Shown here: one piece after another, positions 43,001-48,773 of the stretch
How the letters are laid out: every line of letters starts with the position of its first letter
Position numbering within the stretch: position 1 is the first letter of the stretch
Origin: an uncultured Actinomycetota bacterium
GTDB taxonomy: Bacteria; Actinomycetota; Actinomycetes; Propionibacteriales; Nocardioidaceae
Length of the DNA: 64,000 bases
Direction: 5' to 3'
NCBI GenBank assembly: GCA_963835385.1
Contig: CAWIFK010000002.1
Coordinates: forward strand, 255,572-319,571
Notes under the pieces: generated by a model
The model's database searches: none
Told to the model about the DNA's origin: nothing
The model's input: only the letters and a program-made list of their open reading frames with translations
Program-made: the position numbers and the translations under genes

Positions 43001-44245
43001 ATGAGCGAGCTGCGCCCGAAGGCCTTGTCGACCGCGCTCGGTTCCGCCGAGCAGGTGGAGCTGACCGAGCAGTGGGCGGCGAACAACTACAGCCCGTTGC
43101 CGGTGGTGATCGGATCGGCGGCGGGATGCTGGGTCACCGACGTCGAGGGCAACCGCTACCTCGACTGCCTGGCCGGCTACTCCGCGCTCAGCTTCGGCCA
43201 CGGCCACCCCCGGCTGCTGGCGGTGGCGCACCGGCAGCTCGACCGGCTCACGCTGACCAGCCGTGCCTTCCACAACGACCAGCTCGGACTCTTCGCCCGG
43301 GACCTCGCCGCGCTCACCGGCAAGGACATGGTGCTGCCGATGAACACCGGCGCGGAGGCGGTCGAGACCGCGATCAAGGCGAGCCGGCGCTGGGGCTACC
43401 AGGTGAAGGGAGTCGCGCCGGACCGGGCGACGGTCGTGGTCATGGACGGCAACTTCCACGGGCGCACCACGACCATCGTCGGCTTCTCCACCGACGACGC
43501 CGCGCGCAGCGGCTACGGACCCTTCACGCCCGGCTTCCGGGTGGTGCCGTACGGCGATGCCGCCGCGCTCGCCGACGCGGTCGACGAGACGACGGTGGCC
43601 GTGCTGCTCGAGCCGATCCAGGGCGAGGCCGGCGTGCTCATCCCGCCCGACGGCTTCCTGCGGGACGCGCGGGCGCTGTGCGACGACCGGCGCGTGCTGC
43701 TGGTCGCCGACGAGATCCAGTCGGGTCTGGCCCGCACCGGCCGCACGTTCGCCTGCGACCACGAGGACGTCGTCCCGGACATCTACGTCCTCGGCAAGGC
43801 TCTGGGCGGCGGCCTGTACCCGGTCTCCGCGATCGCCGCCGACCGTGAGGTGATGCAGGTGTTCACCCCCGGGTCGCACGGCTCGACGTTCGGGGGCAAC
43901 CCGCTGGCCGCGGCGATCGGCCGCGAGGTGGTCTCGATGCTGAGCACCGGCGAGCTCCAGGAGCGGTCCGCCGGGCTGGGCGCCGTGATGGAGGAGGGAC
44001 TGTTGGAGCTGCTGGGCGACAGCCTGGTGCAGGTCCGCTGCCGTGGGCTCTGGGCCGGCGTCGACATCGCCCCCGCGCTGATGTCCGGGCGCCAGATGTG
44101 CGAGGCGCTGCTGGACCGGGGGGTGCTGGCGAAGGAGACGCACGGGTCGACGATCCGGCTGGCGCCGCCGCTGGTCGCGACCGAGGACGACATCGCGTTC
44201 CTCCTCGACGGCTTGCGGGAAGTGCTCACCTCGCTGGCCGCCTAG
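43001..44245 (+). CDS. rocD: Ornithine--oxo-acid transaminase
   Basis: 'ANNYSPLPVVI', 'YLDCLAGYSALSFGH', 'LEPIQGEAGV', 'DEIQSGLARTG', PLP lysine 'LGKALGGG', 'HGSTFGGNPLA'. Leaderless -10 CAGCAT. Confidence 0.93.
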   Translation: MSELRPKALSTALGSAEQVELTEQWAANNYSPLPVVIGSAAGCWVTDVEGNRYLDCLAGYSALSFGHGHPRLLAVAHRQLDRLTLTSRAFHNDQLGLFARDLAALTGKDMVLPMNTGAEAVETAIKASRRWGYQVKGVAPDRATVVVMDGNFHGRTTTIVGFSTDDAARSGYGPFTPGFRVVPYGDAAALADAVDETTVAVLLEPIQGEAGVLIPPDGFLRDARALCDDRRVLLVADEIQSGLARTGRTFACDHEDVVPDIYVLGKALGGGLYPVSAIAADREVMQVFTPGSHGSTFGGNPLAAAIGREVVSMLSTGELQERSAGLGAVMEEGLLELLGDSLVQVRCRGLWAGVDIAPALMSGRQMCEALLDRGVLAKETHGSTIRLAPPLVATEDDIAFLLDGLREVLTSLAA

Positions 44246-44296
44246 CCACTCAGCCGCCTAGCCACTCAGCCGCCGAGCCGCCGAGCCGCCGAGCCG
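44237..44296 (+). repeat. GCCGCCTAGCCACTCA x2 followed by GCCGCCGA x3
   Basis: Read directly. The first unit contains the rocD stop codon. Confidence 0.9.
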
Positions 44297-44358
44297 GCCG
44301 GTGCGGGTCGTGCGCGGAATCCGGGGCGCGCACGCCGGGTTGGTGCAGGATCGGCGGC

Positions 44359-45999
44359 ATGCCTGTCCTGCTGCCGCCCCGGCCCACCTTCGTCACGGCC
44401 AGCGAACGTGCCGTGTGGGAGCGGCTTTCGGCACAGCTGGGGGACGACGACGTCCTGATCAGCGGACAGCGGATCTCCAGCCGGGACAAGGACCACGAGA
44501 TCGACGTGGCGGTCGCCTTCGCCGGCGGCGGGGTCGTGGTGGTCGAGGTCAAGGGCAGCAAGGTGTGGTGCGACGCCGGCGGCTGGTGGATCGACCGGCG
44601 CGGGCAGACGACCCGGATCGACCCGGTGACGCAGGCCCGGGAGGCGCAGTACGCCCTGCGGGCCTGGCTCGACCAGGACCCGCGCTGGCGCGGTCGGCGC
44701 GACCTGCGCTGGGGGCACGCGGTAGTGCTTCCCTACACCCGGGTCGACGACGACTTCGCGCTGCCCGACGCCCAGCGCTGGCAGGTGGCCGGCCGCGACG
44801 ACCTCGACGACCTGGCCGGGTTCCTGCGCCGGGTGGTCACCGACCAGACGAACGGCAAGCGGCTGCTGAGCCTCGACGACGTGTGGGCGCTCGCCGACGT
44901 GCTCGGCGGTCGAGGGCTGCCGCAGCGCGACCTGATCGGCGCGGGCGCCGAGCGGGAGGACGAGGTCGAGCGGCTGAGCGCCGAGCAGGCGGTCATCCTC
45001 GACGCCGCGCGGCAGCTGCACCGTGTCGAGGTGCGCGGCGGCGCCGGCAGCGGCAAGACCTGGCTGGCGGTCGAGCAGGCTCGCCGGCTGAGCCGGGAGG
45101 GTCGCCGGGTCGCGCTGACCTGCTACTCCCGCGGCCTGGCCGCGTGGCTGCAGAGACGGGTGGCGAGCTTCCCGCGCAAGGAGCAGCCGGCGTACGTCGG
45201 CACCTTCCACAACCTCGGCGTCGAGTGGGGGGCGCCCACCGGCCGGGAGGACGACCCGCGGTTCTGGGAGGTCGAGCTGCCCGAGCTGATGGTCGACCTC
45301 GGGGCGGGGCAGCCGGCCGGCAGACGCTACGACGACGTGGTGGTCGACGAGGCCCAGGACTTCGCCGACCTGTGGTGGCCTGCGGCGCTCGCCGCCCTCA
45401 AGGACGACGAGTCCGGAGGCCTGTACGTGTTCTCCGACGAGGGGCAGCGGGTGTTCTCGCGGTTCGGGGGCCCGCCGGCCGGCCTCGTGCCGCTGGTGCT
45501 CGACCAGAACCTGCGCAACACCAGGCAGATCGCCTCGAGCTTCTCCACGCTGGCCCCGATCCGGATGCGGCTCGGTGCGGCGGACGGCCCGGAGATCCGC
45601 TTCGTCGAGTGCACCGCGGCCGAGGCCCTCGACCACGCCGAGGACCAGGTGGACCCGCTGCTCGAGGACGGGTGGCGACCCGAGGACGTCGCGCTGCTGA
45701 CCACGGGCAGCCGCTCTCCGGAGCAGAAGTCCCGCCAGGAGGCGGGACCCGACGCCTACTGGGACACCTTCTGGGACGCGGAGCAGGTGTTCTACGGCCA
45801 CGTGCTGGGGTTCAAGGGGCTCGAGCGCCCGGCCGTCGTGCTCGCCCTCAACGAGGACCAGCCGGGCGAGCGGTCGCGTGAGCGGCTCTACGTCGGCCTG
45901 TCGCGCGCCCGCGACCAGCTCGTCGTGGTCGGCGACCCGGCGTTCGTCGAGCAGGTCGGTGGTGCCGCGGTGCTCAGGCACCTGCGCCGAGGTGCCTAG
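44359..45999 (+). CDS. NERD nuclease domain plus superfamily 1 helicase (UvrD-like C-terminal)
   Basis: NERD 'HEIDVAV....GVVVVEVKG...DPVTQA'; helicase 'GGAGSGKT', 'VVDEAQD', 'QNLRNTRQI', 'FKGLER', 'LYVGLSRA'. Leaderless -10 CAGGAT. Confidence 0.9.
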   Translation: MPVLLPPRPTFVTASERAVWERLSAQLGDDDVLISGQRISSRDKDHEIDVAVAFAGGGVVVVEVKGSKVWCDAGGWWIDRRGQTTRIDPVTQAREAQYALRAWLDQDPRWRGRRDLRWGHAVVLPYTRVDDDFALPDAQRWQVAGRDDLDDLAGFLRRVVTDQTNGKRLLSLDDVWALADVLGGRGLPQRDLIGAGAEREDEVERLSAEQAVILDAARQLHRVEVRGGAGSGKTWLAVEQARRLSREGRRVALTCYSRGLAAWLQRRVASFPRKEQPAYVGTFHNLGVEWGAPTGREDDPRFWEVELPELMVDLGAGQPAGRRYDDVVVDEAQDFADLWWPAALAALKDDESGGLYVFSDEGQRVFSRFGGPPAGLVPLVLDQNLRNTRQIASSFSTLAPIRMRLGAADGPEIRFVECTAAEALDHAEDQVDPLLEDGWRPEDVALLTTGSRSPEQKSRQEAGPDAYWDTFWDAEQVFYGHVLGFKGLERPAVVLALNEDQPGERSRERLYVGLSRARDQLVVVGDPAFVEQVGGAAVLRHLRRGA

Positions 46000-46042
46000 C
46001 GCGGTCGGCACCGGCCGCCCCGCGGCCTCGGTCGGGGCCACA

Positions 46043-46064
46043 TGTCGGCGGTCGGCCCTACCCT
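46043..46064 (+). promoter_or_regulatory. Perfect RecA-NDp/PafBC-type promoter
   Basis: TGTCGG-cggtcggccc-TAcccT equals TGTCGG-N10-TA-N3-T with no mismatch. Confidence 0.75.
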
Positions 46065-46076
46065 CGAAGGGTAGGG
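46056..46076. promoter_or_regulatory. Inverted repeat CCCTACCCT-cga-AGGGTAGGG overlapping the -10 element
   Basis: 9-bp perfect arms with 3-nt spacer; operator or hairpin. Confidence 0.5.
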
Positions 46077-46096
46077 GTCGAGCGACGGGGGCACAG

Positions 46097-47572
46097 ATGA
46101 GCGAGTTCGAGGCATTCGACCTGGACCGCAGCACCGGCCGGGCATGGCGGCGGTTCCAGGCGCGGCTGGCCGACCACGTGGCGGCGATGCGCGACGACGA
46201 CGTCCTCGTGGTCTCGGCCGACTCCGCGGTCGGCGAGGACGCGGACGGGGCGGCGCCCTACGTCCAGTTCTGTGCGTGGGGGCAGACCCTGGTGCGCGCC
46301 GAGGTGTCCAGCAACGCCTATCTCGCGGCCGAGGTGGCTTTGGACGGCTCCGGGTACGACGCGGTCGCCGCGATCGGCTGGGCCCGACCCACGCTCACGC
46401 CGGAGGACGAGCCGGACGAGGGGTCGGCCAACTTCTTCGTCGACCTCGAGCGTGCGGAGGCCGACCGGCTGGCGGTGATGTCGACGCAGGTGCTCCGGCA
46501 GGTCTTCGGGGTGCCGCACCCCGCCTTCCTGTCCGCCGACGGCTGGGAGCCCGACCTCTCCGACGACGCCCCGGTCGTGGTGGAGGAGCCGGTCGTCGAG
46601 TCGCCGGCGACGTTCCCCGACTCGCGCGAGCACCTGCTGCGGCTCGTGGACGAGGCGCTGACACCGGTGTTCGGGCAGGCGCCCGAGCACGACGAGGACG
46701 ACGACATCCCGGTCGTGAGCGGCACCGCCCTGGCCTACGTGCGGGTCCTGGAGCAGGTGCCGGGCATCTCGCTGTTCTGCGCGCTCGTCCACGGGGTCGC
46801 CGACCGTGACCGCGCCGCCTTCGAGGTCGCCGTGCTCAACCGCGACGAGCGCTTCCTCAAGTTCGTCCTCGACGAGGACCGGGTGATGGCGCAGGTGTTC
46901 CTGCCCGCCTACCCGTTCGCGCCGGAGCAGCTCAGGACGATGCTGGCGATCCTCGTCGAGGCCGTCGACACGATCGACGACGACCTGGTGGCGCGGGTGG
47001 GCGGCCGGCGTACCTTCGAGCCGGTCGAGGACCGCGCCGGCTCCCGATCCGAGGACTACCGGAGCCCGGGCCCCCTCACCGACGAGGAGCTGCACGCCCT
47101 GCTCGACGACGCCGAGCGGCTCGTCGTCGAGGAGCAGACCCCGCCGGTCCATCCGGCGATGACGACCCTGCTCGAGCTCGACGCCGACGAGCCGGGCTCG
47201 CTGACGCCGGAGCTGGCGGCCTCCGTCTGCTCCGGCGACCGGGACCTGCTCCTGGACCTGATCGCCTGGAGCAGCGAGCAGGAGATCGCCTGGCGACGCG
47301 CCCGCGACGCGGCCCTGACCGCCGCGGACACCGGTGACCGCGCCGAGGCCGGGGTCTGCGAGCGCGAGGCCGACCGGGCGCAGGCGATGGTCGAGCTGCT
47401 GCGCCGCACGCTGCGGCTGGTCGTCGAACGGCAGCTGGGCCGGGACCGGAGCCGCTTCGGCTACCTCGACGCCCGCCACCGCTCACAGACCCGCACGCGA
47501 CCCGATGCCGACCGGCCCCTGCCGGGCCTCGAGCCCCCGCCCGACGAGCCGGACCTGTTCGACGAGGGCTGA
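46097..47572 (+). CDS. Multi-domain T3SS (YopN/CesT)/YbjN-like peptide-binding chaperone protein (TY-Chap-like)
   Basis: N-domain 'AWRRFQARLAD...PYVQFCAWG...VRAEVSSNAYL...GW..P...NFF...RLA.M...LR.VFGVPHPAFL'; YbjN-like middle 'DEDDDIPV.SG...VRV...LN....FLKF'; helical C-domain. Confidence 0.7.
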   Translation: MSEFEAFDLDRSTGRAWRRFQARLADHVAAMRDDDVLVVSADSAVGEDADGAAPYVQFCAWGQTLVRAEVSSNAYLAAEVALDGSGYDAVAAIGWARPTLTPEDEPDEGSANFFVDLERAEADRLAVMSTQVLRQVFGVPHPAFLSADGWEPDLSDDAPVVVEEPVVESPATFPDSREHLLRLVDEALTPVFGQAPEHDEDDDIPVVSGTALAYVRVLEQVPGISLFCALVHGVADRDRAAFEVAVLNRDERFLKFVLDEDRVMAQVFLPAYPFAPEQLRTMLAILVEAVDTIDDDLVARVGGRRTFEPVEDRAGSRSEDYRSPGPLTDEELHALLDDAERLVVEEQTPPVHPAMTTLLELDADEPGSLTPELAASVCSGDRDLLLDLIAWSSEQEIAWRRARDAALTAADTGDRAEAGVCEREADRAQAMVELLRRTLRLVVERQLGRDRSRFGYLDARHRSQTRTRPDADRPLPGLEPPPDEPDLFDEG

Positions 47573-47658
47573 GGTCCCGCACTGCCGGCTCGGTCCGCCC
47601 GGTCCGTGGCGACCTGTCCGACATCGCCTCGCCGGGGCCGCGAAGCCGGAGCCGAGCG

Positions 47659-47672
47659 GGGTCCAAGGTCCT
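47659..47672. promoter_or_regulatory. DosR/DevR-like box upstream of E1alpha
   Basis: GGGTC-CAAG-GTCCT (minus strand AGGACCTTGGACCC). Confidence 0.35.
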
Positions 47673-47735
47673 TAGCACCCCCGGGCCGTGCGGCGTACGT
47701 TCCTGCGGAGGAAGCCCCTTCCCCCGGAGGTCCGG

Positions 47736-48773
47736 ATGACCACGCACGTAGCCCCTGCCGCCCCGACGGTCGCCGCGCCGAGCAGCCCGGACGCCGAGCC
47801 CACCGCGACGACCCGGGTCAAGCTCTACGAGACGATGGTGCTCAGCCGCACCTACGAGGAGGCGATCCTCCGCGAGTACCACGCCGACAAGGGGCCGGGC
47901 TTCGACATCGGCAAGGGGCTCGTGCCCGGCGAGATGCACCTGTCCGCCGGGCAGGAGCCCGTCGCAGCCGGGGTCTGCGCCCACCTGACCACCGAGGACG
48001 CGGTGACCGCCACCCACCGCCCCCACCACCTCGCCATCGCCCACGGCGTGGACCTCAACGCGATGACCGCGGAGATCTTCGGCCGCGTCGACGGGCTCGG
48101 CAGGGGCCGCGGCGGTCACATGCACCTGTTCGACCCGGCCACCCACTTCTCGTGCTCGGGCATCATCGCCGAGGGCTACCCGCCCGCACTCGGGCAGGCG
48201 TTCGCCTTCCACCGTCGCGGTACCGACCGGGTCGCGGTCGCGGTCACCGGTGAGGGCGCGGCCAACCAGGGCGCCTTCCACGAGTCGCTCAACCTGGCCG
48301 CCCGCTGGTCCCTGCCGGTGGTGTTCGTCGTCGAGGACAACGACTGGGGCATCTCGGTCCCGCGGTCGGTCTCGACCGCCGTCGGCTCGAACGCCGACCG
48401 CGCCGCGGCGTACGGCATCCCCGGCGAGCGGATCGAGGACAACGACGTCGAGGCGGTGTACGCCGCTGCCGGCCGTGCCGTCGCCCGCGCCCGCGCGGGG
48501 CAGGGGCCCTCGCTGATCGAGGTGCACACCCTGCGGATGTGGGGCCACTTCGAGGGCGACGCGCAGGGCTACCGCCCCGAGCTGGCCGAGGTGCCCCAGC
48601 ACGACCCGATCCCCGTCTACGAGAAGCGGCTGCGCGAGGCCGGCCTGATCGACGACGCGGCGGTCGAGGAGGTCAGGCGGCTGTGCGTCACCGCCGTCGA
48701 GGACGCCATCGGCTTCGCCAAGGCGAGCGCCGTACCCGACCCCGCCACCGCCACCGAGCACGTCTTCGCCTGA
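47736..48773 (+). CDS. ThDP-dependent 2-oxoacid/acetoin dehydrogenase E1 alpha subunit
   Basis: 'GEMHLSAGQE', 'THRPHH', 'GRGGHMH', ThDP motif 'GEGAANQG...EDND', 'RMWGHFEGD'. GGAGG RBS. Confidence 0.93.
   Translation: MTTHVAPAAPTVAAPSSPDAEPTATTRVKLYETMVLSRTYEEAILREYHADKGPGFDIGKGLVPGEMHLSAGQEPVAAGVCAHLTTEDAVTATHRPHHLAIAHGVDLNAMTAEIFGRVDGLGRGRGGHMHLFDPATHFSCSGIIAEGYPPALGQAFAFHRRGTDRVAVAVTGEGAANQGAFHESLNLAARWSLPVVFVVEDNDWGISVPRSVSTAVGSNADRAAAYGIPGERIEDNDVEAVYAAAGRAVARARAGQGPSLIEVHTLRMWGHFEGDAQGYRPELAEVPQHDPIPVYEKRLREAGLIDDAAVEEVRRLCVTAVEDAIGFAKASAVPDPATATEHVFA

Follow-up and report, generated by a model that had tools for sequence, protein, structure and literature searches.

A PafBC-type promoter motif upstream of a gene for a three-domain TY-Chap protein in an uncultured Nocardioidaceae bacterium

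The DNA considered here is a stretch of 64,000 nucleotides (nt) from an uncultured Actinomycetota bacterium of the family Nocardioidaceae (assembly GCA_963835385.1, contig CAWIFK010000002.1, positions 255,572 to 319,571 of the forward strand), referred to as the window in the following. Our subject is the gene of an acidic protein of 491 amino acids, P0001, together with the region in front of it. The gene follows, on the same strand, a gene encoding a NERD nuclease-like domain fused to a superfamily 1 (SF1) helicase, from which it is separated by a gap of 97 bp between the end of the stop codon at 45999 and the ATG at 46097 (Table 1). In this gap TGTCGG (46043-46048) is followed after ten bases by TA (46059-46060) and after three further bases by a T (46064). 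An initial annotation of the region had pointed out this exact TGTCGG-N10-TA-N3-T, and it is indeed present at 46043-46064. It is the only exact match in the window, for which shuffled sequences give an expectation of 0.06 on both strands together. The chance rate derived from the shuffles, about 5e-7 per position, agrees with the rough estimate of 1e-6 made earlier.

The published consensus of PafBC-dependent promoters is tGTCgg(N10)tA(N3)T, in which the GTC triplet alone is strictly conserved (PMC8635444). The motif in the gap matches this consensus exactly, including the invariant GTC and the ten-base spacing. The likeness to the mycobacterial PafBC (RecA-NDp) promoters, e.g. that of recA in Mycolicibacterium smegmatis, includes the lack of a -35 element, and no sigma-70-type pair of -35 and -10 elements was detected within 44200-47800. 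A LexA (SOS) box in the gap was rejected, as no TCGAAC-N4-GTTCGA site with up to 3 mismatches lies within 46000-46096. In leaderless genes located behind the motif in the same genome, the start codon follows the T of the -10 element after 5-9 nt, mostly after 6-7 nt. From this spacing, the mRNA of the P0001 gene is predicted to begin near 46071, which would leave about 26 nt of 5' untranslated region.

Table 1. Features at the P0001 locus (positions in the window)
Feature	Position	Strand	Basis or remark
NERD nuclease-like domain fused to UvrD-like SF1 helicase	44359..45999	+	Pfam NERD, UvrD_C_2, AAA_19; PADLOC RTasNERD-Hel, E 1e-29
PafBC '-26 element' TGTCGG, contains the GTC triplet	46043..46048	+	sequence; published consensus PMC8635444
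Perfect inverted repeat CCCTACCCT-cga-AGGGTAGGG, overlaps the -10 element	46056..46076	.	specific to this genome
-10 element TACCCT (TANNNT), 10 bases past the -26 element	46059..46064	+	sequence
Predicted transcription start (inferred)	46070..46072	+	spacing at leaderless genes behind the motif in the same genome
GGGTCGAG box in the 5' untranslated region	46075..46082	+	conserved in Nocardioidaceae orthologues, -21 to -24 from the start codon
GGGGG ribosome-binding stretch, 5 nt 5' of the ATG	46087..46091	+	kept among Nocardioidaceae orthologues
Gene for the 491-amino-acid acidic protein P0001	46097..47572	+	open frame; G+C at third codon positions (GC3) 0.92-0.96
TY-Chap3 domain, residues 15-145	46139..46531	+	Pfam PF22552, E 5.5e-33, 114.6 bits; AlphaFold2 alpha/beta, high pLDDT
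TY-Chap1 / YbjN-like domain, residues 178-308	46628..47020	+	Pfam PF22551, E 3.1e-42, 143.8 bits; PF10722 YbjN, E 3.9e-6
Chap-C helical domain, residues 350-442	47144..47422	+	Pfam PF22554, E 3.9e-24, 85.6 bits

The genome of the host comprises 4.32 Mb with a G+C content of 72% and is 99.86% complete. It encodes the PafBC regulator: on contig C4, dop and pafA are followed just downstream by two adjacent genes with WYL domains, which corresponds to the usual pafA-pafB-pafC arrangement. The exact motif occurs 20 times in this genome, and about 4 matches are expected when the shuffle rate of the window is scaled. Each of the 20 matches is located directly 5' of a long open frame whose codon bias is that of real genes, and the start codon mostly follows after 5-8 nt. 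The products encoded behind them are RecA (motif at C2:186168), UvrA (C17:104095), UvrB, UvrC, RadA, DNA polymerase I (polA), DnaX, SbcD, a PD-(D/E)XK nuclease, an SNF2 helicase, a DEAD-box helicase, a DUF6504 protein, thymidylate kinase, a DinB/MDMPI-like protein, the chaperone-like P0001 and a few others. In this gene set the regulon known from mycobacterial PafBC can be recognised (PMC8223512). The repair enzymes which the initial annotation had named as the bulk of PafBC regulons are part of it, but this description is too narrow, because the published regulon also includes sigma factors and oxidative-stress genes (PMC8223512).

With the first element fixed at GTC alone, 58 matches were obtained in the genome. 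For 36 of these the start codon of a long gene follows 5-9 nt later, which implies leaderless mRNAs and thus a putative PafBC regulon that is leaderless for the most part. The P0001 gene is among the few putative members with a leader, and in this it differs from most promoters of the same class in the genome. On these grounds, the motif is the mark of a working promoter class in this organism. The host, a member of the Nocardioidaceae, sets the system apart from the mycobacterial one, and we found no experimental study of a PafBC regulon in this family in the literature consulted.

Several of the 36 leaderless-type matches precede genes encoding DUF222 or DUF222-HNH proteins, which we regard as corresponding to the damage-inducible 13E12 family of Mycobacterium tuberculosis. 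The likeness to the mycobacterial system consequently covers the PafBC genes beside pafA and the motif before recA, uvrABC, radA and the 13E12-like DUF222 genes. One DUF222 gene is located in the window itself. It is preceded by a second promoter of the same class, CGTCGGTGCATCTCCCTAGCGT (1035-1056, + strand), in which GTC is kept and which is followed by an ATG 6 nt later. The leaderless gene (1063-2478, + strand) encodes 471 amino acids with DUF222 and HNH endonuclease domains. Further DUF222 genes with similar promoters are present on contigs C4 and C10.

Homologues of P0001 were gathered from 60 related genomes and by two scans of a collection containing one genome per species. Related loci were recovered with alignments, and a query with the single protein gave no loci. 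After removal of duplicates, 58 distinct homologues of at least 400 amino acids with 150 nt of upstream sequence formed the conservation set. Within these 150 nt the exact motif is found on the coding strand in front of 44 and the GTC-anchored form in front of 47 of the 58 homologues; on the opposite strand it is found in front of none of them (0 of 58). Elsewhere in the same loci the motif has a background rate of 0.002 per 150 nt. Conservation upstream of orthologues, proposed as a check in the initial annotation, is thus observed for the three-domain homologues, including those of Rhodococcus. In most cases the motif begins 53-61 nt ahead of the start codon. It is shared by homologues from the Nocardioidaceae and, in another order, by the two paralogues of the Rhodococcus erythropolis group, and it is retained also at loci with quite different upstream genes. 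The bases of the spacer and the flanks have diverged among the homologues, indicating that the motif was retained and is not explained by recent shared ancestry alone.

Genomes of the R. erythropolis group contain two three-domain paralogues each, about 35% identical to each other, and both are located behind the motif, at -54/-55 and at -102/-106, respectively. In R. erythropolis NBRC 15567 (loci L136 and L177) one of the two has a leader of about 30 nt and the other of about 80 nt. On this comparative evidence, the P0001 gene is very probably under the control of PafBC. The scans, which use short peptide patterns and cannot prove absence, yielded no homologue in named Mycobacterium, Streptomyces or Corynebacterium records; this would explain why the family does not appear in published regulons.

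P0001 consists of three domains, TY-Chap3, TY-Chap1 and Chap-C, and the bit scores of all three exceed the curated Pfam cut-offs of 27 bits. The Rhodococcus homologue shows the same domain order. The tandem CesT/YbjN-like domains and the helical C-terminal domain recognised in the initial annotation correspond to these families. Its view of a non-enzymatic product also holds, for the fold is chaperone-like and no catalytic family is found among the Pfam and NCBIfam matches; NCBIfam gave nothing useful for P0001. In a very large protein collection, P0001 matches 1,200 cluster representatives at E <= 0.001 and 211 at E <= 1e-30.

An AlphaFold2 model built with 22 homologues has a mean predicted local distance difference test (pLDDT) value of 85 and a predicted template modelling score (pTM) of 0.40, indicating that each domain is well defined and that the packing of the domains against each other is not established. 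When this model was compared to the Protein Data Bank (PDB) by Foldseek, 48 of the best 50 matches were class I chaperone-fold or YbjN-like proteins, with target template modelling (TM) scores of 0.65-0.75 and sequence identities of 9-21%. These are the chaperones SycH, ExsC, SycN-YscB, SchA, VecA, SycE, SycT, SigE, CesT and SicP, and also YbjN of E. coli and DR_1245 of Deinococcus. SycH, ExsC, SycN-YscB, CesT, YbjN and DR_1245 match the TY-Chap1/YbjN-like region. A sequence-profile search of the PDB with P0001 gave no match at E <= 1.

Chap-C, folded alone, reaches a pLDDT of 90.7 and forms a bundle with a long helical hairpin. Compared to PDB folds it gave no significant match; the best ones, at E of about 1, were weak PadR-like and coiled-coil matches. 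Two cysteines of the domain, one invariant and the other mostly conserved, lie in the contexts AASVC and xVCxxE (alignment A3) and might form a redox-sensitive pair. The same genome encodes a stand-alone TY-Chap1/YbjN-like protein of 154 amino acids (C17:1577-2041, corresponding to locus L032:1450-1914, - strand); its neighbours have no family matches.

The best structural matches of P0001 are the type III secretion class I chaperones ExsC-ExsE (3kxy), SycH-YscM2 (1ttw), CesT-CsrA (5z38) and SycN-YscB (1xkp). These proteins are acidic like P0001, bind extended client peptides across a dimer and also act in partner switching. SycN-YscB consists of two unlike subunits, as P0001 consists of two unlike domains. 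In contrast to these chaperones, the two halves of P0001 are fused in one chain and an extra helical domain is attached. Type III secretion is not known to occur in Actinobacteria.

A likeness of another kind exists to DR1245 of Deinococcus radiodurans, a YbjN-like protein that binds the repair protein DdrB (PMC3575483). DR1245 (4h5b, rank 42 in the Foldseek search) belongs to the same fold class, is non-enzymatic and has a DNA-repair protein as its partner. It differs from P0001 in being a single domain, and its deletion slows growth and leaves radiation resistance unchanged. The PDB profile search revealed no relationship between the two at sequence level.

The neighbourhood of the gene was compared in 35 loci with about 3.5 kb of flank on each side. 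The NERD-SF1 helicase gene adjoins the chaperone-like gene in 13 of them, all from non-Rhodococcus records, and the gene order varies: it lies upstream on the same strand in seven loci, downstream on the same strand in four and divergently in one, and in the thirteenth it is located about 1.5 kb upstream of a short-form homologue. In two loci (L062 and L078) the chaperone-like gene and the downstream helicase gene are tightly coupled, stop to start, which would place the helicase under the PafBC promoter there as well. Among 36 genomes of the genus both genes are present in 13, the chaperone-like gene alone in 3, the helicase gene alone in 6 and neither in 14 (Fisher's exact p = 0.003, for related genomes which are not independent). 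The gene recD is a neighbour of the chaperone-like gene in 4 loci. A neighbour of 467-490 amino acids in 7 loci, with a GxGxxG-type motif and no family match, was taken as shared gene order and dismissed as a partner. In the window, the helicase gene appears to be leaderless (44330-44361), with a -10-like GCAGGAT 7 nt before its ATG that reads GCATGAT in orthologues; no PafBC box lies upstream of it.

For mycobacteria it is known that single-stranded DNA binds to PafBC's WYL domains and that PafBC bridges region 4 of SigA and the -26 element, whereby promoters lacking a -35 element become usable for the housekeeping polymerase (PMC8635444, PMC11804915). We propose that the gap in front of the P0001 gene contains such a PafBC-dependent promoter ('sigma adaptation', RecA-NDp) with TGTCGG as -26 and TACCCT as -10 element. 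Single-stranded DNA arising after damage would occupy the WYL domains, PafBC would join SigA region 4 to the -26 element and the promoter would be switched on. The resulting mRNA would carry the short leader with the GGGTCGAG box and the GGGGG ribosome-binding site. Its product combines two unlike domains of the type III chaperone/YbjN fold in one chain and is probably the single-chain counterpart of a chaperone dimer. P0001 may grip a client protein at a segment that is extended or basic and, during repair, hold, deliver or restrain this client. The best candidate clients are the NERD-SF1 helicase-nuclease and possibly RecBCD, and the nearest working models are ExsC and CesT with their partner switching and DR1245 as partner of DdrB.

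We regard this explanation as a whole, PafBC promoter and client-binding adaptor together, as reasonably probable. Its parts differ in strength. For the role as a client-binding adaptor, which is deduced from the fold, we see about even chances, and the choice of the NERD-SF1 helicase as the client is tentative and rather doubtful. Judged by its promoter, P0001 probably belongs to the actinobacterial DNA-damage (PafBC) response as a member not reported before. The initial annotation had called it previously unrecognised, and in line with this we found no published link between YbjN and PafBC in the literature consulted. The promoter class and the domain families are both known; the link between them appears to be new.

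Several points weigh against the proposed explanation. Eleven of the 58 homologues have no motif, of which at least two (L174 and L176) look like cases of mis-set start codons, and the related genomes are non-independent samples. The biochemistry of PafBC comes entirely from mycobacteria. With the low pTM, the packing of the two chaperone-like domains against each other is poorly defined in the model. Where the helicase gene lies upstream, it has its own promoter lacking a PafBC box, and its link to the chaperone-like gene is partial, as shown by the 6 of 36 genomes with the helicase alone and by the lack of a helicase gene near the gene at the Rhodococcus locus examined.

Mycobacteria are the group in which the PafBC response was worked out, with attention paid mostly to its enzymes. 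The comparative evidence assigns an uncharacterised three-domain TY-Chap family to the DNA-damage response, sets it apart from the ADP-ribosylation context from which its domain names derive and supplies the NERD-SF1 helicase as a concrete candidate client. If P0001 is a damage-induced adaptor or restraint of a nuclease-helicase, a post-translational control step would be added to actinobacterial repair. The R. erythropolis group, with its two paralogues behind the motif, may be suitable for work at the bench. A wider idea, which we put forward as speculation and consider unlikely, is that tandem TY-Chap proteins form a general and hitherto unrecognised regulatory layer of bacterial DNA-damage responses that was recruited under PafBC in Actinobacteria. 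The protein induced after damage would then act by partner switching: it would capture part of a nuclease-helicase (the NERD-SF1 helicase or perhaps RecBCD) or part of that enzyme's inhibitor. An enzyme made constitutively would thereby be switched on or off, as regulators of secretion systems are by ExsC and CesT.

Alternatively, the pair might be a conflict (anti-phage) system, in which the chaperone binds ADP-ribosylated host proteins, the NERD-helicase is the effector and PafBC senses the single-stranded DNA of an infection. TY-Chap1 and TY-Chap3 were defined as accessory chaperones in systems centred on an ADP-ribosylglycohydrolase, where WYL regulators, restriction-fold nucleases and helicases are found too (PMC9503650, Iyer, Burroughs, Aravind and colleagues 2022). 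A linked restriction-fold nuclease and helicase is present here as well, with NERD and SF1 directly upstream, and the helicase matches not only the PADLOC model RTasNERD-Hel but also the model NERD+UvrD. Furthermore, the pair lies between housekeeping genes in the manner of an insertion, the chaperone-like gene is patchily distributed (16 of 36 genomes of the genus) and its product is less conserved than the helicase (42-68% compared to 75-84% identity to the proteins of the window). However, a gene for an ADP-ribosylglycohydrolase (PF03747) was not detected in the nearly complete genome, so the published context of the TY-Chap domains does not apply to P0001, the gene of which is tied to a DNA-damage regulon instead. 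No WYL or Nudix one-component regulator is encoded beside the gene, where the annotated neighbours are the aminotransferase, the helicase and E1 dehydrogenase subunits; the WYL proteins of PafBC are encoded on another contig. Moreover, P0001 has no PADLOC match, the high conservation of the helicase is unusual for a defence effector and the promoter is common to core repair genes. Taken together, we consider a conflict system rather unlikely.

The charge of P0001 suggests another way of action. The protein has a net charge of -53 and an isoelectric point of 4.3, the orthologues range from -41 to -64, and per residue its net charge belongs to the lowest 0.2% of the large open frames of the genome. 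An acidic motif, HDEDxDIP, is invariant in the orthologues. It might be that P0001 acts mainly by charge as a DNA mimic, occupying the DNA-binding surfaces of nucleases or helicases after damage and thereby limiting them, and the acidity kept in all orthologues would fit this. Acidity is common to class I chaperones and YbjN proteins in general, though, so the charge cannot distinguish DNA mimicry from the gripping of a peptide, and no known DNA mimic is among the best 50 fold matches. We therefore hold this possibility for quite improbable. Scarcity of lysine as an escape from pupylation was also considered and rejected: P0001 contains 1 lysine in 491 residues, and 6.7% of the large open frames are as low.

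The inverted repeat over the -10 element, likewise noticed in the initial annotation, is present as a perfect 9+9 repeat with the arms CCCTACCCT (46056-46064) and AGGGTAGGG (46068-46076), the left one covering the -10 element. It had been interpreted as a possible second repressor layer. On this reading it would be the operator of a dimeric repressor acting on top of the activation by PafBC. The position of the repeat over the -10 element and the predicted start would suit an operator, and its occurrence in a given gap of 97 bp is mildly unlikely (chance of about 0.015-0.02, with about 0.18 perfect 9-bp inverted repeats with loops of 3-7 nt per kb in the genome). Against this, the repeat was found upstream of none of the orthologues examined, no other paired copy of either arm exists in the genome, the window holds about 13 distinct comparable repeats and the left arm is already constrained by the -10 element. 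Since the palindrome lacks both conservation and a second copy, and the gap has no LexA box either, a second repressor layer is not supported, and we consider it very unlikely.

The predicted start lies within the right arm, so the gene's own mRNA would be unable to form the hairpin; according to the predicted fold, it is formed only in read-through RNA from the upstream gene. A classic terminator was rejected, because no T-run follows the palindrome and the fold of the gap region is unexceptional (z = -1.1). The palindrome may be due to chance or may be a local insulator against read-through from the helicase gene. That the PafBC-type motif itself is a chance match and the gene constitutive or transcribed by read-through from the helicase gene would agree with the roughly 4 chance matches expected per genome and with the leader unusual for this regulon, but is close to refuted by the conservation of the motif at a similar distance in 47 of 58 homologues, far above background and also behind differing upstream genes.

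The GGGTCGAG box and the subsequent GGGGG stretch (46075-46091) are both kept in the orthologues of the Nocardioidaceae. The spacing of the box is fixed relative to the start codon and not to the -10 element. In this genome the box is not a general feature of gene starts, and it is absent from the Rhodococcus homologues. Pairing of the box with TTCGAC codons of the coding region was rejected, since it persists in orthologues with differing N-terminal coding sequence. Nor is it part of a coding sequence, for the number of bases between box and ATG is, across the orthologues, not divisible by three. Because most of the regulon is leaderless, the conserved leader suggests some control of the P0001 gene after transcription.

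A different situation is found for short homologues of about 300 amino acids, which have TY-Chap domains and no Chap-C and occur mainly in Propionibacteriaceae. In 67 of 71 of these the motif is missing. Many of them share another conserved sequence, GTGCGCTAGGTTCG, around the -10 region (loci L017-L020 and L093-L135), which suggests that the two-domain genes of Propionibacteriaceae are controlled differently. A loss of PafBC as the cause was rejected, as 4 of 5 such genomes keep pafA and dop.

The helicase and P0001 genes are flanked by a gene for a class III aminotransferase upstream and by genes for the alpha and beta subunits of an E1 dehydrogenase and for an M20 peptidase downstream. The gap between the aminotransferase and helicase genes contains short tandem repeats at 44246-44300, namely two copies of GCCTAGCCACTCAGCC followed by three copies of GCCGAGCC.

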